This document shows positions 3,888-59,785 of a stretch of 64,000 nt of DNA, piece by piece. The DNA is taken from the sequence record MT446396.1; one strand, given 5' to 3'. Below the pieces are notes generated by a model. It was not told the origin of the DNA and did no database searches. It saw nothing but the letters and a program-made list of their open reading frames with translations. Made by a program: the position numbers and the translations under genes. This stretch comes from Escherichia virus TH22. Position 1 is the first letter of the stretch; each line of letters opens with the position of its first letter.

Positions 3888-5948
3888 ATGTCTGAACAAT
3901 TAAATGAACTCTTTGACAAATATATCGAAGCCTTCGGTTATCCTGTCATTAATATGAATCCAAAATACAAGGTCCCACAGGTTTGGCAATTTGGTGTTCC
4001 TGGGACCAATTCTCTTATGGCTCGTTTGATGCAATTCACGGGCAAAGAAACAGTTAAACAATATAAACGCGGCGATGCAATTGCCGAGGTATTCCTGTTA
4101 TCCGGAACTTCACACGGTCATGCTGTTCCTCTGAAGGGTGGTTTAGGTGAAAAACCTCTTGATGCAATTAACTTGATTTTTACTACAGTCTGGGAAAGCA
4201 TTAAACTAGGCAAACCTGATGTAGTCTTGTTCCGTTTCCCATCCAAAAAGATGAAAGGACAAGACCAAGCTATTATTCGTATTATGAATCGACTGATTCA
4301 AATGAAAACCAGCGGACGTTATCATGTTCTTCCGAATGCTTCTGGCCTTGGTAAAAAGAACGCTTATGTAATTATGTACAAAAGGGGTGTTGACCTGCTT
4401 TCAGTCGATGGTATGCCACCAGTCCCTGAGAAATATAAAAAAGTCGAAACTAAAGTTGGTGATGTATTCACCAATAAAGATAATGGTGCACAAGTATCCA
4501 AACAAGAAATTGCAGCCGAGATTCTGATTGACGCAGCAAACAAAAAGACCGATGCTGCTGTTGCCCAGAAAACTAAAATCAGTCGCCGAGCTATTGCACA
4601 AGCCCAGTACGCTCCAAGTGATTCCGTGCCAGAAGGTTGGGACGAAATCGATGCAGAAGCTGCTAAGTTTAGTCGACCGGCTACGGCAGAACTTATCGAT
4701 GATTATGAAGAACTGGAAATTTTTGTTCGACCTTCCGAAACGAATACTATGGCTCGTATGCGCGCAGCAGATACGGCTATGCGAGCAAATGGTGTTTGGA
4801 AAGAAGAAATTCGTGTTGAAGACTCTGACCCAATTTTTAACCGTATGCATCGCGAACTTAAACGTGCTCCAGTTGGTAGTATGAAGCAGATGCAGATTTT
4901 TGCCGAATCATGCGCAGAGATTCTTAACCTTCGCAAAGCCGCATTTATCGAAAGAAAAATGAATGATGCTCCTCCTAATGTGGATGCAGCCACTTATGCA
5001 GCCTCGCTCTGGGAAAAAGAATACACAAGCGCCATTCGTGTTGCAGTTAAAGACTTTGCTGAAGAAGCATCAGAAAATACTCTTAATTTCACAGCAGGGT
5101 ATACTGACAACCGTTTCCATTATGGTCAGCGAGAAGCAATTGCAGATTATTGTGGAGCAAACTATGCCGATATTAATAATTATTTGATGGGCAAATATTA
5201 TGAAGAAGAAGCTGAATTCCTAAATCTAGACAGAGTTGTCGAAACAATTAAGGAATTGGATTCGGCCTTTGAAATTGGACATAAGTTGCCACCTAATACA
5301 ACTCTTTGGCGTGGTCAATATTTAAACGTTCCTACATTTGATAAAATTAAGAAATCTAAATTATTTTATTTCAGGAACTATGTATCAACGTCGTTTAAAC
5401 CGATTATCTTTGGTGGCTGGGTGGCGAACGTTGCTATGGCTGCAGTTCATCAGGACTATCGTGATGGGACATCTTTCCAGGCTGATGACGAAATTGTTTT
5501 ACCAGATATGCCGGAAGCACGCCGCGACCACGTAATGATGCATGTTGGTTGGAAAATTTCTGGGGCGGACTTAATTAACGTAATTGTTCCTGGGGAATTG
5601 TCAGGCAACCCATCCGAGCAGGAAGTTATTCTTCCTCGTGGGACTGTAGTTAAGATTACCAAAATTACTGATGCTTCGTATCAAGGAAACGCGAACGTCA
5701 AAATGCTGGAAGCTGATATCCAGACTACGGACCAACTGGATGAAAATGCAGTTATCTATGATGGTGATGTGTTGATGGAAACTGGTGAGCTTGTCGTTTA
5801 TCAGGGCGAGGAAACAGAAGAGCCAGTAGAATCTGTTGACTTTGCATCGTTTGCATCCTCTGGGGTAACGAAGAAAGTCAATCAAGGTCTTGGTATTCTT
5901 GCTAGTTGTATTAATTTGGAAGCTATTCCTCCTAAATTCCTTTCGTAA
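3888..5948 (+). CDS. alt: Alt-like ADP-ribosyltransferase (capsid-packaged, injected)
   Basis: 686 aa (T4 Alt about 682 aa); position between ligase and gene 54 as in T4; C-terminal R-S-E motifs (LWRGQ, YVSTSF, EQEVILPRG). Confidence 0.85.
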   Translation: MSEQLNELFDKYIEAFGYPVINMNPKYKVPQVWQFGVPGTNSLMARLMQFTGKETVKQYKRGDAIAEVFLLSGTSHGHAVPLKGGLGEKPLDAINLIFTTVWESIKLGKPDVVLFRFPSKKMKGQDQAIIRIMNRLIQMKTSGRYHVLPNASGLGKKNAYVIMYKRGVDLLSVDGMPPVPEKYKKVETKVGDVFTNKDNGAQVSKQEIAAEILIDAANKKTDAAVAQKTKISRRAIAQAQYAPSDSVPEGWDEIDAEAAKFSRPATAELIDDYEELEIFVRPSETNTMARMRAADTAMRANGVWKEEIRVEDSDPIFNRMHRELKRAPVGSMKQMQIFAESCAEILNLRKAAFIERKMNDAPPNVDAATYAASLWEKEYTSAIRVAVKDFAEEASENTLNFTAGYTDNRFHYGQREAIADYCGANYADINNYLMGKYYEEEAEFLNLDRVVETIKELDSAFEIGHKLPPNTTLWRGQYLNVPTFDKIKKSKLFYFRNYVSTSFKPIIFGGWVANVAMAAVHQDYRDGTSFQADDEIVLPDMPEARRDHVMMHVGWKISGADLINVIVPGELSGNPSEQEVILPRGTVVKITKITDASYQGNANVKMLEADIQTTDQLDENAVIYDGDVLMETGELVVYQGEETEEPVESVDFASFASSGVTKKVNQGLGILASCINLEAIPPKFLS

Positions 5949-21340: not shown

Positions 21341-22621
21341 TTACGCCTCATAAATGATTGGCGGAAGTTTAACACCGAGCAGATAAGACATATTGCTCTG
21401 ACCGGCCATTAAATCCATATTGGTTGCATCGATAATACGAGCTTCTTTATCGTCTTTAGCAACGGTGTACGGGTTAGCTGAAAGTGCGTAACGAACCATC
21501 AGAGAGATAGATGGCTGCAAGCTGTCTGGGTCCACAATGACCTTAAACGCACCAACGTGCTCTTCATCATCCAAGTCCAGGCCTTCGGTATAAGGAGCAT
21601 AGAAAATTGCGCCTACGACTTCGTTTCCGCCGTAATTTTCTTTAACACCAACAGTTACATAATCCAATGGACTGTTAACATCACAGAATACAGGGAGGCC
21701 ATTAATCAAATAACCGTACGCTGTTTCGGGGAGCCACTGTTCGTCTTCTGGTCTGTGTTTCAACCAACCAGAACCGGCCAACATAGCAGCAACACGGCTA
21801 GAGGCAACAACAAAGGTACCGGAATAAGATGTAGTTTTCTGAATTTCGGAGTTCATTTCGCAAACCAGTTCGTACAGTTTACGTGCACCTTCTGGGGCTG
21901 CATCGTATGTTAAATCGATGGTGCCATTGTCAGAAACGCCAGTTACTTTATAACGCTTGGAAACGGTAATAAGAGACTGAAGAACATCTTTGTTAATTTC
22001 ATCTGCCATAATAGTGGCAAGCAGGTCTTCTAAGAAAGCAGGAGCATTAAAACCATTTGCTTCCATATCCTGGGCAAGTTCAACAGTTAATGCAGTTTTC
22101 AATTTACGTGTTTTAACCGGAGCATTCCATTTGTTAACCTGGAATACAGCATTGCTAATTTCAACATCACCGGCTTCGAATTTTTCAGTGTGTGCGGCAT
22201 CAGGAACAAGGCGAATAGTCGATGCAATAAGACCTTCTTGCAGAACATCAGATAACACTGTTTCTGTGGTCGATGCAAATGGATTATCAACCAGAGCTTT
22301 GTAAACGATATTTTGGTATTTTATATATTCGCCTTTAGCCACAGGCTGAGTGGCTGTAGTTAATTCTGGAATAGTTGTGCGGTCTTTAGAACCGACTTCG
22401 CCTCCATAAGTAGCGCCCGTCTGGAAACTGAATTCATTATCAGGAGTAAGATATTTAACACCATACAGTGCAGCAACAGGTTGGTTAGTACGTTGTTCAG
22501 CGATGATATCGCGGTAAATCAATTTAGTCGTAGCGCGGGTCAAAGCAACAAGATTCGGGCGGCCCAAGGAGTTGCTGGTAGTAATAGTTGACTCGCGCAG
22601 TAATTTGTTAATCTTTGCCAT
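21341..22621 (-). CDS. 24: capsid vertex protein
   Basis: 426 aa; MAKINKLLRESTITTSNSLGRPNLVALTRATTKLIY closely matches T4 gp24 (427 aa) as recalled. Confidence 0.9.
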   Translation of the reverse strand: MAKINKLLRESTITTSNSLGRPNLVALTRATTKLIYRDIIAEQRTNQPVAALYGVKYLTPDNEFSFQTGATYGGEVGSKDRTTIPELTTATQPVAKGEYIKYQNIVYKALVDNPFASTTETVLSDVLQEGLIASTIRLVPDAAHTEKFEAGDVEISNAVFQVNKWNAPVKTRKLKTALTVELAQDMEANGFNAPAFLEDLLATIMADEINKDVLQSLITVSKRYKVTGVSDNGTIDLTYDAAPEGARKLYELVCEMNSEIQKTTSYSGTFVVASSRVAAMLAGSGWLKHRPEDEQWLPETAYGYLINGLPVFCDVNSPLDYVTVGVKENYGGNEVVGAIFYAPYTEGLDLDDEEHVGAFKVIVDPDSLQPSISLMVRYALSANPYTVAKDDKEARIIDATNMDLMAGQSNMSYLLGVKLPPIIYEA

Positions 22622-24646: not shown

Positions 24647-25465
24647 TTAAGAAATTCGTGATGCTGCGAGAGCAGACAAGTCCGCGAAGGACAGGGTAGG
24701 CTTGGCGCCTTTTTCTTCAACTGCTTCTGAAATGTAATTCAGTGCCGCAGCATCGTCTACATTTTTATTTATAGCGGCTTCGGTGATTGGTTTGTCGGTG
24801 GGTTCTACCTGACCTTTAACCATTTCAACGATAGCGCCAATTTTGGTACCGAATGCATCAGAGTATTCCATGCCTTCTACCAGAGAACCAACTTTTTCTT
24901 TTTGAGATTCAGTCAGGTCTTTAGTCGCTTCAGTCAACGCAACTTCACGTTGGACATAATTGATATAAGCATCACGCTTAGCAACTTCTTCGAACAGATT
25001 AGCGGTTTCTTCTTTCTGTTCAGCCAGTTCTTCCTGCATTTCTGCAACAACATCGACAGATTCTTCTGGAACAACAACGTTGTGCTCAACGAACAGTTCT
25101 TTCATGCCGGTGAACATGGATTCGAACAGGTCAGCTTTAATGCCACGGTCGACAGCCAGTTTATTTTCAGCGAGCCATTCTTTAGCAACGTGGTCCAGGA
25201 ATTTAGCTGCAGATTCTTTCAGTTTTTTCTCTGCTTTTTCGTCGGCTTCTTCTTTATTCTTTTCGACTTCTTCTTCAGCTTTTTCAGCGATGGCGTGAAT
25301 GTGAGATTCTGCCAGTTTGATGGCGTGTTGCTTGACGGTAGCTTCGAATACAGTGCCGAAGGTAGCTTTCGCTTCCGGGGACAAATTAACTGATTCGAAA
25401 ATACTATCGAGAGCAACGGAAGCATCGATATTCTGAGCTTCAGAAATGAGTTGTTCTTTAAGCAT
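24647..25465 (-). CDS. 22: prohead core scaffold protein
   Basis: 272 aa (T4 gp22 269 aa); E/K-rich coiled-coil; synteny. Confidence 0.85.
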   Translation of the reverse strand: MLKEQLISEAQNIDASVALDSIFESVNLSPEAKATFGTVFEATVKQHAIKLAESHIHAIAEKAEEEVEKNKEEADEKAEKKLKESAAKFLDHVAKEWLAENKLAVDRGIKADLFESMFTGMKELFVEHNVVVPEESVDVVAEMQEELAEQKEETANLFEEVAKRDAYINYVQREVALTEATKDLTESQKEKVGSLVEGMEYSDAFGTKIGAIVEMVKGQVEPTDKPITEAAINKNVDDAAALNYISEAVEEKGAKPTLSFADLSALAASRIS

Positions 25466-25497: not shown

Positions 25498-26136
25498 TTA
25501 TAACGTCTTTAAAGCCTCTGCGAGAGCCATAAAGGCGTCATCGGCACTGGTATCGGCAACTGCCGTTTGTGATTCTGTAATCTGCTTTGGTTTGACCCAA
25601 GCGTCCGGAGCACTTGGCCCCCATACTGCATCTACTCCAACCGTCAATTTAAAACCTTCATTAACGATGCTATAACCTTTTGCTGATTTAGTCAAGGAAC
25701 CAAGTCCACGACTAGATACACCTGGAATCCAACCTGCTCTTATATTTGCAGCAAGTTTATCACCTGGGCCATGGTCGCCTTCGATAATGCGCGCGCGACC
25801 ATATACATCATTACCTTTCCACCACATATCTTCAATAATAATAGCGGCTTGCATAGGGTCGACGTTAGCACGGGGCGGATGATTTAATTCTCCTAAAGCT
25901 TGTTTAGTAGCAACCTGTTCTGCCATATAATCAGCAACGGCTTTTTCCAAAATATGTTTAGGATAAAGTCGTTTATTACGGTTAACAACTTCAGCTTGTA
26001 GGAAAATACCTTCAATATAAAGTCCTGGCTTTAAATCGCTGTTGGAACCGTCATGAGATTCCAACATCGGTACACCATCTTTAATTTCGCCCGGTTGACC
26101 CCAGTGTTCGATTAGTAACTCTGGTTTCTGTTCCAT
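25498..26136 (-). CDS. 21: prohead core protein / maturation protease
   Basis: 212 aa, same length as T4 gp21; synteny. Confidence 0.9.
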   Translation of the reverse strand: MEQKPELLIEHWGQPGEIKDGVPMLESHDGSNSDLKPGLYIEGIFLQAEVVNRNKRLYPKHILEKAVADYMAEQVATKQALGELNHPPRANVDPMQAAIIIEDMWWKGNDVYGRARIIEGDHGPGDKLAANIRAGWIPGVSSRGLGSLTKSAKGYSIVNEGFKLTVGVDAVWGPSAPDAWVKPKQITESQTAVADTSADDAFMALAEALKTL

Positions 26137-26564
26137 TAATCAAGTCCGAATGCTTTACGCTTAGCTCGAGCTTTTTTGCGCTTGCGCTCTGCTCTGATTT
26201 GCGTAGATGGGTTTGCTCTTTTCGTTTTAGTAGCCAGACGGGCAATTTGACGACGTTTAGCTTTAGAAAGACCAGTTGTTTGGAAAGCATTACGCTTACG
26301 AGTAGCTAGGTCTTTTGTGCGGGTTAACTCACCGCGAGACGATACATGTTTAACGATAAATTCGTTAAGCTGAACACCTTCATTCAGCGCGCCGATAACC
26401 GTTGCTTTTTCATATTCACCGGCTGCAAACATGTTTTCTACAATAATATTTATATCGTCTTTTTCTAAGGCTTCAGATAATGAATCAAATTGTCCCTGAG
26501 CTTCTTCGGAAACACTTTCAATGTTTTCAAGAGTTAATTCGTAATCATCAGGGATAATAAACAT
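26136..26564 (-). CDS. 68: prohead core protein
   Basis: 142 aa (T4 gp68 141 aa); basic C-terminus; synteny. Confidence 0.75.
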
Positions 26565-56039: not shown

Positions 56040-56729
<690 letters not shown>

Positions 56730-56730
<1 letters not shown>

Positions 56731-56759
56731 TGTACAAATGAGTGTAGGTGCAGTATTAT
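56730..56759 (+). promoter_or_regulatory. early promoter (ATGTAC-18 nt-TATTAT)
   Basis: Hexamers with 18-nt spacer upstream of ORF 56791. Confidence 0.5.
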
Positions 56760-56790
56760 GTTCCTACACCAACGAACAAACGGAGTTAAT

Positions 56791-57123
56791 ATGAACATCA
56801 AAACTTACAACGAGTTTTTAGCCGAATCCGCCATCAATGAGACCAAATCAATTGATGATAGTGAAGGCTCTCTGAAATTTGGTTTAACCAAAAATGCAGA
56901 TGGTGTTTTCTTTCAGATTGGTAATGAACGTTTTCAAACGTCCAAATATTCCAAAGCTGCAGTTGAAGCTGTCCTGAAATCTGGTGGCAAGTGGAAAGGC
57001 AAAGAAGGTACTAAAGAAATTGGTATCGCTGTTGACGGTGGTATGGCTTATTTTAAAATTGGCGATGAACAATTTATTATGTCTGCTCGCGGACGTAAAG
57101 AACTGGCAAAACTTTATAAATAA
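56791..57123 (+). CDS. internal-protein-like small protein with N-terminal capsid-targeting-like sequence (MNIKTYNEFLAE)
   Basis: 110 aa from ATG with GGAG Shine-Dalgarno; N-terminus resembles the T4 IP capsid-targeting sequence MKTYQEFIAE as recalled. Confidence 0.6.
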   Translation: MNIKTYNEFLAESAINETKSIDDSEGSLKFGLTKNADGVFFQIGNERFQTSKYSKAAVEAVLKSGGKWKGKEGTKEIGIAVDGGMAYFKIGDEQFIMSARGRKELAKLYK

Positions 57124-57131
57124 GGTTTCTT

Positions 57132-57404
57132 ATGAAAACTTTCAATGAATTTTTCAACGAGTCCCAACTGAATGAAGAAGTAAAAATTAGTAAAGCAGTC
57201 AAAGCTATGATTGACAATATCAATCACCTGTATAGCATTGACTTGACTGACCATATAACAATTGGTAACAAACGCAACTTTTTCGCGTTTGACATTTCAG
57301 AACTTGACCAGAACCAAATTAATAACATTGAGCGTTTTGCCAATGACAAGGGTCTCCGCCATGAGACAGCTGGTTATAAAAAATACGCAATTTATCTAAA
57401 ATAG
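57132..57404 (+). CDS. internal-protein-like small protein (MKTFNEFFNE)
   Basis: 90 aa; capsid-targeting-like N-terminus ending in Glu. Confidence 0.6.
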   Translation: MKTFNEFFNESQLNEEVKISKAVKAMIDNINHLYSIDLTDHITIGNKRNFFAFDISELDQNQINNIERFANDKGLRHETAGYKKYAIYLK

Positions 57405-57412
57405 GATTTCAA

Positions 57413-57712
57413 ATGCAAACGCTCCATGAATTTTTGGTAGAAAACAATTATCTGGCAGAAGCAAAAACCTGGCCTCTGGGCCTTCAGAAGAAAAACACCT
57501 ACAAATGGGTTGACTTCAAAGGTAAAGGCGACGCTGAAGACTTTGACCAGCTGTGTAAAAATGGTTATACCTTCCTTGACTCTAACTATAATAAAATTAC
57601 CTCATTTAGTCAGAAATCCAGCATTGCATATATTGAAACTGGTAAGAACACCCCTAAGAACATCACTGACGACTTCGCAGCTTATGGCGTGATTCGCGGT
57701 TCAAAAATGTAA
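57413..57712 (+). CDS. internal-protein-like small protein (MQTLHEFLVE)
   Basis: 99 aa; degenerate capsid-targeting-like N-terminus. Confidence 0.55.
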   Translation: MQTLHEFLVENNYLAEAKTWPLGLQKKNTYKWVDFKGKGDAEDFDQLCKNGYTFLDSNYNKITSFSQKSSIAYIETGKNTPKNITDDFAAYGVIRGSKM

Positions 57713-57748
57713 TGTACATGATGGGATAACTGCAGTATAATTATCCCA
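57712..57748 (+). promoter_or_regulatory. early promoter inside inverted repeat TGGGATAA...TTATCCCA (promoter stem-loop cassette)
   Basis: -35 ATGTAC, 18 nt, -10 TATAAT at 57736-57741; 8-bp inverted repeat brackets the -10. Confidence 0.6.
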
Positions 57749-57781
57749 TCAACTACTGGAGACAACATGAAAACTTATCAA
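57715..57781 (+). repeat. 67-bp perfect direct repeat, copy A (promoter + RBS + first 5 codons)
   Basis: Identical to 58013-58079. Confidence 0.85.
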
Positions 57782-58009
57782 ACATTTATAACAGAATCTT
57801 CCCATGGTATGGAAGTTAAACTTGGTCAAGCCCTTGCTGAAGCAGAGCGCCTGTTTGCACGTATCAAAGAACTTGCTGATTCTGTAGATGCATCATCTTT
57901 TAAAGGCGACCAGGGTAAAGTTAAAGCTCTCCTTGCTCTTTGTTCTGATGCAGGCGAAATTGCTAAGAATGGTACCAAGATGAAAAAACGCCTAGAAGAC
58001 TTAAAATAA
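57767..58009 (+). CDS. internal-protein-like small protein (MKTYQTFITE)
   Basis: 80 aa; capsid-targeting-like N-terminus. Confidence 0.65.
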   Translation: MKTYQTFITESSHGMEVKLGQALAEAERLFARIKELADSVDASSFKGDQGKVKALLALCSDAGEIAKNGTKMKKRLEDLK

Positions 58010-58048
58010 GTATACATGATGGGATAACTGCAGTATAATTATCCCATC
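58010..58048 (+). promoter_or_regulatory. early promoter inside inverted repeat TGGGATAA...TTATCCCA (promoter stem-loop cassette)
   Basis: -35 GTATAC, 18 nt, -10 TATAAT at 58034-58039. Confidence 0.6.
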
Positions 58049-58079
58049 AACTACTGGAGACAACATGAAAACTTATCAA
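58013..58079 (+). repeat. 67-bp perfect direct repeat, copy B
   Basis: Identical to 57715-57781. Confidence 0.85.
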
Positions 58080-58298
58080 GAATTTATTAATGAAACTGCT
58101 GATGTTAAAGTGCAATTCATTTACACCGGCAAGAAAGATAAAATGGGCGAAATGCCTTATGGAACTCTCCGCGACGCCTTAGATAATTACGGTCAGCTCG
58201 GCGGTGAAGAGTTTGGGGACTATTTTGTTATCCAGGGTCCGGCAGAAGTTATCGAGAAATGGGCTAACAAGTATAAATCAATTTTCCGTAAAAAATAA
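58065..58298 (+). CDS. internal-protein-like small protein (MKTYQEFINE)
   Basis: 77 aa; N-terminus nearly identical to the T4 capsid-targeting sequence MKTYQEFIAE as recalled. Confidence 0.65.
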   Translation: MKTYQEFINETADVKVQFIYTGKKDKMGEMPYGTLRDALDNYGQLGGEEFGDYFVIQGPAEVIEKWANKYKSIFRKK

Positions 58299-58340
58299 GT
58301 GTACTTTTAGATATGGGATAGTGTATAATTATCCCATCAA
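58299..58340 (+). promoter_or_regulatory. early promoter inside inverted repeat GGGATA...TATCCC (third cassette copy)
   Basis: -35 GTGTAC, -10 TATAAT at 58324-58329, then GAGGAG and ATG at 58358. Confidence 0.55.
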
Positions 58341-58357
58341 CTACTGAGGAGAATAAA

Positions 58358-58543
58358 ATGAAACGTTGCGAATTAATTAGAAATGTTACTGCCCTTGTTG
58401 CTGTTACCGCTTTTGGTTTTAGCATGTTTGCTGGCTTTATGTTGAATATGCTTTCAACTTCTGAGAATATAATCTCTTTAGTAGTTGCATTCTTAATTGG
58501 TTCAATCTCTTTCGTTATGGATAAAATCTCTAAAGGTGAATAA
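58358..58543 (+). CDS. small hydrophobic protein (61 aa, probably two transmembrane helices)
   Basis: Hydrophobic stretches VTALVAVTAFGFSMFAGFML and IISLVVAFLIGSISFV. Confidence 0.45.
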   Translation: MKRCELIRNVTALVAVTAFGFSMFAGFMLNMLSTSENIISLVVAFLIGSISFVMDKISKGE

Positions 58544-59501: not shown

Positions 59502-59575
59502 GGCCCTGTAGCTGGACGGTCAAGCGAGCGACTCATAATCGCTGGATGGTGGTTCGATTCCACCCAGGGCCACCA
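59502..59575 (+). tRNA. tRNA with CAT anticodon (Met, or Ile if lysidine-modified)
   Basis: Hand-folded cloverleaf: acceptor GGCCCTG/CAGGGCC, anticodon stem AGCGA/TCGCT with loop CTCATAA, T-arm GGTGG-TTCGATT-CCACC, encoded CCA. Confidence 0.75.
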
Positions 59576-59709: not shown

Positions 59710-59785
59710 CGAGGCATAGCTCAGAAGGAAGAGCAAGGACCTTCTAAGTCCTAGGTCGTAGGTTCGATTCCTACTGTCTCGACCA
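59710..59785 (+). tRNA. tRNA-Arg (anticodon TCT)
   Basis: Hand-folded cloverleaf: acceptor CGAGGCA/TGTCTCG (one G-U), D-stem GCTC/GAGC, anticodon stem AGGAC/GTCCT with loop CTTCTAA, T-arm GTAGG-TTCGATT-CCTAC, encoded CCA. Confidence 0.8.

Follow-up and report, generated by a model that had tools for sequence, protein, structure and literature searches.

The internal proteins (Ips) of phage T4 are ejected into the host cell with the phage DNA (PMC9026906). They are directed into the head by an N-terminal capsid-targeting sequence (CTS), and the first ten residues of one of them, IPIII, suffice to package foreign proteins into T4 heads; residues 4 and 7 of this leader determine targeting and residues 8 and 10 determine processing (both PMC9026906, citing Mullaney & Black 1996), which is carried out by the prohead protease gp21, cutting after L/I-x-E (PMC9026906). 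Here, we analysed five consecutive small open reading frames (ORF1 to ORF5) with CTS-like leaders in a 64-kb stretch of Escherichia virus TH22 (MT446396.1), referred to below as the window, and found that the five-gene cluster is the hypervariable ipI locus of a T-even phage.

Over 30 variants of Ips have been counted in T-even phages (PMC2839356 and PMC12373910, citing Repoila et al. 1994 and Comeau et al. 2007), and three of them, Ip1, Ip2 and Ip3, act against GmrSD Type IV nucleases, each blocking a different one (Silas et al. 2025, PMC12373910). IPIII is required on ECOR17 and does not need its CTS for activity if it is produced inside the cell (Srikant et al. 2022), and phage Bas37 needs its ipI-locus CTS protein Bas37_0260 to withstand McrBC of E. 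coli K-12 (HIDEN-SEQ preprint, bioRxiv 10.1101/2025.11.20.689424). Earlier work on homologs or analogs of the proteins treated here has shown how the CTS functions, what gp21 cleaves and that GmrSD and McrBC enzymes are inhibited. The locus and its leader, the shuffling of cassettes and the role against restriction have been in the literature since 1994, with functional confirmation in 2007, 2022 and 2025, and together they form the standard published model for the ipI locus (Repoila 1994; Rao & Black 2010; Silas 2025). The TH22 cluster is a typical, well-populated example of this already known locus, composed of catalogued Ip families, and it introduces no new principle. A functional parallel exists in phage P1, whose Dar proteins are packaged in the head, injected and protect DNA from restriction (PMC12810830). 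DarA, DarB and Hdf are functional analogs of Ips with no sequence relationship to them, and the Dar proteins differ in using another incorporation pathway and in acting against Type I systems.

Five genes with capsid-targeting leaders at the ipI locus

By megablast, the window region belonged to Gaprivervirus (Straboviridae, Tevenvirinae), within the SP18/VR20/VR25/VR26/TH40 group of T-even phages (92–98% identity). Gene order in the window was 3, 1, 57A, 57B, the five ORFs, trna.4 and trna.3, which matched the T4 order 57B-ipI-trna.4, with the five ORFs filling the variable ipI slot. The two hypervariable IP loci lie at 57B-trna.4 and e-denV, and the 57B/Acb1 and trna.4/trna.3 flanks placed the cluster in the first of these. 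The ORFs and their immediate flanks are listed below; an arrow marks the expected gp21 cut.

56275–56730, plus strand: 57B homolog (Acb1, anti-CBASS nuclease; Pfam PF23474, E = 1.2e-59; gp57B or Acb1 in relatives), the conserved left boundary of the ipI locus
56791–57123, plus strand: ORF1, 110 amino acids (aa), leader MNIKTYNEFLAE↓S, unnamed internal-protein family, VR7 gp156-like (phrog_3966)
57132–57404, plus strand: ORF2 = Ip9, 90 aa, leader MKTFNEFFNE (phrog_7673)
57413–57712, plus strand: ORF3, 99 aa, leader MQTLHEFLVE↓N, internal head protein family, VR7 gp154-like (phrog_2667)
57767–58009, plus strand: ORF4 = Ip5, 80 aa, leader MKTYQTFITE↓S (phrog_3499)
58065–58298, plus strand: ORF5 = Ip6, 77 aa, leader MKTYQEFINE↓T (phrog_8111)
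58358–58543, plus strand: trna.4 homolog, 61 aa, predicted membrane protein (phrog_1692; annotation in relatives and T4), the conserved right flank of the ipI locus

An earlier reading of the same DNA (the original prediction) had proposed five consecutive small ORFs with CTS-like starts, and these were confirmed; a CTS-type regular expression matched only these 5 of 736 ATG-started ORFs (≥40 aa, six frames, whole window), and all five were adjacent. Its start of the cluster, 56730, had to be corrected, as this position is the final base of the 57B stop codon and the first gene begins at 56791. For ORF1, 56791 is the likely start rather than the longer ATG at 56758, because a GGAG lies 5 nt upstream (6–9 nt before the ATG) and the leader is encoded from there. 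Since Acb1 (57B) directly adjoins the Ip cluster, the two would form a small counter-defence island.

Annotation in relatives named ORF2 as Ip9, ORF4 as Ip5 and ORF5 as Ip6, described ORF3 as 'internal head protein, similar to VR7 gp154' and listed ORF1 as 'hypothetical protein, similar to VR7 gp156'. In the PHROGs database, ORF2 to ORF5 fell into internal head or internal virion protein families (E = 1e-20 to 1e-56), and ORF1 fell into phrog_3966, whose function label is 'unknown'. ORF1 nevertheless represents a genuine CTS family despite this annotation, because all 11 of its 11 homologs start MKTYxEF[LI]xE. Of the profile searches, which the original prediction had proposed, PHROGs gave internal-protein families for four of the five proteins; Pfam and NCBIfam yielded no family above threshold for any of the five, and a Protein Data Bank sequence search gave no significant match for any of them.

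The leaders of ORF4 and ORF5 were canonical, with Y at position 4 and F at position 7. At the same targeting positions ORF2 carries F and F, and ORF1 carries Y and F, shifted by two residues: its leader is canonical but lies two residues further in, the usual initiator Met having become an Ile behind a new Met-Asn. The gp21 motif L/I-x-E stood at the leader end in four of the five proteins (LAE↓S in ORF1, LVE↓N in ORF3, ITE↓S in ORF4 and INE↓T in ORF5). ORF2 ends its leader in FNE, non-canonical at the P3 position, with the next L-x-E at residues 13–15 (LNE↓E), and other Ip9 family members carry a canonical MKTYQEFIxE leader. A second candidate gp21 site, LAE↓A, was found at residue 16 of ORF3. 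ORF1, ORF4 and ORF5 have all the published determinants, and ORF2 and ORF3 come close. T4 IPI, IPII and IPIII contain exactly one [L/I]-x-E each, at the leader end, and the same was true of ORF5; ORF2, ORF3 and ORF4 carry additional internal motifs of this type. The original prediction had attributed the leader MKTYQEFIAE to all three T4 proteins, which is correct for IPII and IPIII, from whose leaders those of ORF1, ORF2 and ORF3 deviate at single determinant positions, but not for IPI, which starts with the 19-residue variant leader MKTFKEFTSTTTPVSTITE.

The cognate prohead protease and scaffolding core were encoded in the same window, and so were gp23, inh and an Alt-like protein. The following were identified by tblastn with T4 proteins.

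25507–26130, minus strand: gp21 prohead protease (87.5% identity to T4 gp21, E = 4e-123)
24653–25465, minus strand: gp22 major scaffolding core protein (73% identity to T4)
26208–26564, minus strand: gp68 (67% identity to T4)

The TH22 window and its relatives show directly how the genes are built, that their leaders are conserved, to which families and to which locus they belong, that the protease and scaffold genes are present and, as described below, that the cassettes form a mosaic. Together with annotation and published function, locus, leader determinants and machinery agree with the original reading of CTS-tagged internal proteins with an anti-defence role, and we put the probability that the five proteins are packaged, processed and injected Ips at about 0.8, with the individual steps taken from T4 proteins. 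According to this model, the Ip genes would be transcribed early and probably to some extent late, and a CTS of about ten residues (M-K-T-Y-x-E-F-[I/L]-x-E) would bind the gp22/gp67/gp68 scaffolding core, so that each protein is built into the prohead. The protease gp21 would then cut after the Glu of L/I-x-E, leaving mature bodies of 7–11 kDa in the head, embedded in the DNA, to be ejected with it at the next infection. Because they would be injected with the DNA, the Ips would be present before any phage gene is expressed and could neutralise 'first-response' host nucleases that attack modified phage DNA. Ip6 would act on McrBC and the other four most likely on further enzymes of Type IV, GmrSD-like or similar, or on other immediate defences, although ORF1 may bind nucleic acid instead. 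Ips meet host defences before any other phage molecule, and each new Ip-target pair accounts for part of the T-even host range, which is relevant to the choice of phages for therapy.

Compared with T4 IPI to IPIII, the TH22 cluster shares the CTS leader, which is of the IPII/IPIII type, the L/I-x-E gp21 motif, the promoter-plus-stem-loop arrangement and the small size of the products, and for ipI the locus is the same. It differs in holding five genes at a locus where T4 has one, in the lack of an own promoter for ORF2 and ORF3, and in mature bodies that have no detectable sequence similarity to those of mature IPI, IPII or IPIII.

Promoter-like and stem-loop cassettes and the proposed exchange of Ip genes

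Four cassettes combining a promoter-like site with a stem-loop lay in the region, the sites of the first three coming from a promoter scan, and one late-promoter-like box was also present.

56731–56771, plus strand: cassette 1, promoter TGTACA-17-TATTAT at 56731–56759, stem-loop at 56739–56771 around the -10 box (fold -14.8 kcal/mol, z = -2.55), serving ORF1-ORF2-ORF3
57713–57766, plus strand: cassette 2, promoter TGTACA-17-TATAAT at 57713–57741, 11-bp stem at 57719–57751 (z = -3.68), serving ORF4
58010–58064, plus strand: cassette 3, promoter TATACA-17-TATAAT at 58011–58039, stem at 58017–58049 (z = -3.46), serving ORF5
58299–58357, plus strand: cassette 4, TGTACT-18-TATAAT, stem at 58313–58337, serving trna.4 and forming the right edge of the variable region
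57115–57122, plus strand: T4 late-promoter-like TATAAATA box, 9 nt upstream of the ORF2 ATG, overlapping the last codons and stop of ORF1

Each cassette contained an inverted repeat around the -10 box with a stem of 8–11 bp (z -2.0 to -3.7), and the same promoter and stem-loop layout was found upstream of T4 ipI, ipII and ipIII. The claim that every gene has its own early promoter did not hold: there were three promoter-like sites for five genes, and ORF2 and ORF3 each begin 8 nt past the preceding stop, with no promoter of their own. Only six TATAAATA boxes occurred on the plus strand of the window, and the one at 57115–57122 could allow ORF2-ORF3 to be expressed late, in time for prohead assembly.

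The promoter, stem-loop and leader codons of ORF4 and ORF5 lay in a direct repeat of 95 nt (57715–57809 and 58013–58107; 89% identity), and cassette 4 carried the third copy of a repeat found in cassette 2. The description of the five genes as paralogous therefore applies to the leader and the upstream cassette, not to the bodies. PeSL-like promoter/stem-loop elements were seen at both IP loci by Repoila et al. (per Arbiol et al. 2010, PMC2839356). The TH22 cassettes resemble described PeSL cassettes (PMC2839356; Comeau et al. 2014, PMC4122927) in several ways: they are repeats of ~50 nt that combine an AT-rich stem-loop with a promoter of the T4 early type (TGTACA/TATACA-N17-TATAAT), they flank variable genes and they coincide with presence/absence breakpoints. 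They differ in that the -10 box lies inside the stem-loop and that the coding leader is partly included in the repeat.

Six close relatives had flanks 95–100% identical to those of the window, and presence/absence breakpoints in the cluster fell at the repeated cassettes. The gene content of each is given below.

TH40 and VR26: ORF1, Ip9, Ip5 and Ip6 present; ORF3 absent
VR25: ORF1, Ip9, ORF3 and Ip6 present; Ip5 slot empty
VR20: ORF1, Ip9, ORF3 and Ip6 present; an unrelated CTS gene in the Ip5 slot
ECML-359 and EAWsc9: ORF1, Ip9, ORF3 and Ip5 present; a 36%-identical allele in the Ip6 slot
This window: ORF1, Ip9, ORF3, Ip5 and Ip6 all present

The five-gene combination of the window was not found among these six relatives. 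Exchange of Ip genes as cassettes, probably by recombination between the promoter/stem-loop/leader repeats, would explain why close relatives carry different subsets. In a wider comparison, probing IMG/VR with 57B yielded 28 loci, and 27 of them had one to five CTS ORFs directly after 57B. These loci yielded 60 CTS ORFs in 15 body families, with the leader consensus M-K-T-Y-[Q/N]-E-F-[I/L]-x-E followed by S or A, and no match to the CTS pattern was found on the minus strand of the 28 loci.

The second Ip locus (e-denV) is outside the window, because the window stops ~6 kb past ORF5. In close relatives this locus lies between e and vs.8 and holds four further CTS genes (NC_028925.1 57491–59216), namely a T6-Ip5-like gene, Ip10, a gp127-like gene related to ORF3, and Ip7; phages with both loci would thus encode about nine Ips in all. 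ORF3 has distant CTS-bearing relatives in the second Ip locus.

Body families and candidate targets

The bodies behind the leaders were mutually unrelated, as originally proposed: without leaders they showed no significant similarity to one another (BLASTP best E = 0.13, searched among just 11 sequences), and the same comparison gave no significant similarity to T4 IPI, IPII or IPIII. Homology of any body to IPI was rejected, as none matched the IPI body at E < 0.1 (BLASTP). Among the named Ip4–Ip10 families, ORF2 belongs to Ip9 (RB15), ORF4 to Ip5 (RB51, PP01) and ORF5 to Ip6, whereas ORF1 and ORF3 belong to unnamed yet equally widespread CTS families. Searches with the bodies alone (tblastn) matched 55 GenBank phage records for ORF1, 172 for Ip9, 121 for ORF3, 494 for Ip5 and 230 for Ip6.

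ORF5 offers the clearest indication of a target. It was identical to Bas37_0260 at 60 of 77 positions (78%; 87% similar) over all 77 aa (BLASTP E = 4e-46). The Bas37_0260 gene (MZ501089 145553–145786) of phage KarlGJung (Bas37) has the same leader and occupies the same place, directly upstream of trna.4; it differs in coming from a Tequatrovirus rather than a Gaprivervirus, and the 17 substitutions between the two proteins cluster in residues 46–66. Given 78% identity to Bas37_0260, McrBC is the likely target of ORF5, and ORF5 (Ip6) most likely inhibits this enzyme. T4 Arn inhibits McrBC. Arn is a functional analog of Ips that is not packaged and has no sequence relationship to them. The original statement that the targets of the five proteins are unknown therefore no longer applies to ORF5 and stands for the other four. 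We infer the target of ORF5 from its ortholog and those of the rest by analogy, and for each of the other four we regard a restriction-type defence as the target with even or slightly better than even odds.

ORF2 was assigned to Ip9 by its match to phrog_7673 (E = 1.7e-56) and by 79% identity to RB15 Ip9 (Q38376), and its AlphaFold2 model (predicted local distance difference test, pLDDT, 78) has the topology alpha-beta-beta-alpha-beta-beta. The Ip9 body also occurs outside T4-like phages. A leaderless 72-aa gene that opens an early operon in the 43-kb siphovirus Bas70 encodes it at 50% identity (PQ850619.1 36656–36874), and in the Ackermannviridae phage YX22 it is the C-terminal domain of a protein of 972 aa (OR776998.1 57624–60542; phrog_3867, function label 'unknown'). 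A profile search of 1.84 billion representatives returned 13 relatives, both CTS-bearing and leaderless, including two within proteins of ~900–1000 aa; with only 13 matches, Ip9 is a small family and no functional annotation was gained. Such a distribution is what a design of 'delivery tag plus portable cargo' would give; on a further, doubtful reading, if true, Ips would be generic anti-host modules that T-even phages make injectable by adding a 10-residue tag. The OLB35 'ip7' protein and Ip9 have only their C-terminal 33 residues (the NQFNNIQRFANDKGLRHEPGGYKKYAIYLK region) in common and differ in their N-terminal halves, so that recombination would also take place inside Ip bodies.

ORF4 was assigned to Ip5 by phrog_3499 (E = 2.4e-41) and 90% body identity to PP01 ip5. 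In Bas37_0261 (MZ501089 145863–146120) the Ip5 body stands behind a 15-residue IPI-like leader, MKTFKEFATKTTITE, instead of the MKTYQTFITE found here, and both leaders end ITE↓SS. Two leaders on one Ip5 body suggest leader swapping or an internal deletion.

The mature ORF1 body of ~98 aa contained an internal sequence duplication (z 6.4), and its structure model (pLDDT 77) consisted of two beta4-alpha repeats. A duplicated Whirly/PUR-like fold is tentatively predicted, a lead at the level of the fold and not of homology or function. A Foldseek search of the model against BFVD returned only ORF1's own family. That ORF1 represents a novel class of injected Ip, a basic, duplicated Whirly/PUR-like nucleic-acid binder instead of a binder of Type IV nucleases, is a doubtful proposal based on this model; if true, ORF1 might shield entering DNA or DNA ends, or sequester host RNA. 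The cluster is useful as a candidate list in which ORF5 has a likely McrBC target, ORF1, Ip9, ORF3 and Ip5 are orphans, and ORF1 has a structural lead.

Proposed packaging and injection weighed against alternatives

Several points weigh against a set of five packaged, processed and injected anti-restriction proteins. Ip4–Ip10 showed no reproducible inhibition of 15 GmrSD groups (PMC12373910), and because of this result an anti-Type-IV role of Ip5 and Ip9 is unproven. The McrBC result, a preprint finding, was obtained for an ortholog from another genus, 78% identical to ORF5 (bioRxiv 10.1101/2025.11.20.689424). The promoters are early-type and prohead assembly is late, and only ORF2 has a late-promoter-like box. 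Among the leaders, that of ORF1 is set back from the N-terminus by two residues, ORF3 has a non-aromatic L at targeting position 4 (with F kept at 7), and position 8 of ORF2, P3 of the expected cleavage site, is F and not L or I. Searchable papers contained no proteomic analysis of virions and no N-terminal sequences covering any of the five proteins or another Ip of a Gaprivervirus, and a search for virion mass spectrometry of Ip5, Ip6 or Ip9 brought up nothing relevant.

The best-surviving alternative, which we consider improbable, is that the five proteins are packaged but are generic, DNA-associated proteins of the head interior, serving charge neutralisation, condensation or ejection, and that the diversity of their bodies reflects weak constraint. 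Isoelectric points of the mature bodies would suit such a role in the basic ORF1 (9.3), ORF3 (9.0) and ORF4 (8.8), which resemble T4 IPI–III (9.0–9.7), as would the Whirly/PUR-type fold predicted for ORF1, typical of nucleic-acid binders, and the negative anti-GmrSD results for Ip4–10; Ip9 and Ip6, however, are near neutral (6.8 and 7.8). Every T-even Ip whose function has been determined (Ip1, Ip2, Ip3 and Bas37_0260) is a specific nuclease inhibitor. Moreover, the body families are conserved at 69–100% identity across hundreds of phages and are present or absent as a whole, which argues for specific accessory functions and not for relaxed constraint.

It is very unlikely that the five are unpackaged cytoplasmic early proteins whose shared N-terminus has been kept as part of a recombination or expression cassette. 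Such an account would draw on the ORF4/ORF5 repeat, unbroken from the promoter into the first codons, on the early type of all recognisable promoters, on the stand-alone leaderless Ip9 gene in a siphovirus and the leaderless metagenomic relatives of Ip9, and on the activity of IPIII in the cell without its CTS. Yet 45 distinct leader DNA sequences preserved the leader residues through synonymous codon changes (four codons at Thr3, TAT/TAC counts of 24/12 at Tyr4 and three codons at Ile8), which indicates that selection acts on the protein, and ORF2 and ORF3 retain a leader in the absence of a cassette. Glu at position 10 and L/I at position 8 obey the gp21 rule, which an explanation at the DNA level does not predict, and ten IPIII residues are enough to package foreign proteins in T4 heads (PMC9026906). 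Chance occurrence of the ORFs or of the motif in AT-rich phage DNA, for which only the small size of the ORFs speaks, is refuted by conservation, as each ORF has tens to hundreds of conserved homologs. Only 5 of 736 ORFs matched, all of them adjacent, and the PHROG E-values ranged from 1e-20 to 1e-56. Packaged, processed and injected Ips thus remain the favoured reading of the cluster.

Other genes in the window were also of note. The Alt-like ADP-ribosyltransferase (3894–5942, plus strand), another packaged and injected protein, had 35% identity to T4 Alt and was far more diverged than the neighbouring structural genes. Tandem paralogs of the gp24 capsid vertex protein were encoded on the minus strand at 22621–21353 (69% identity to T4 gp24) and 21340–20069 (55%). 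Downstream of the Ip cluster, as in VR20, were tRNA-Met(CAT) at 59502–59575 and tRNA-Arg(TCT) at 59710–59785; in the relative EAWsc9, the equivalent of the tRNA at 59502–59575 is labelled tRNA-Ile2.

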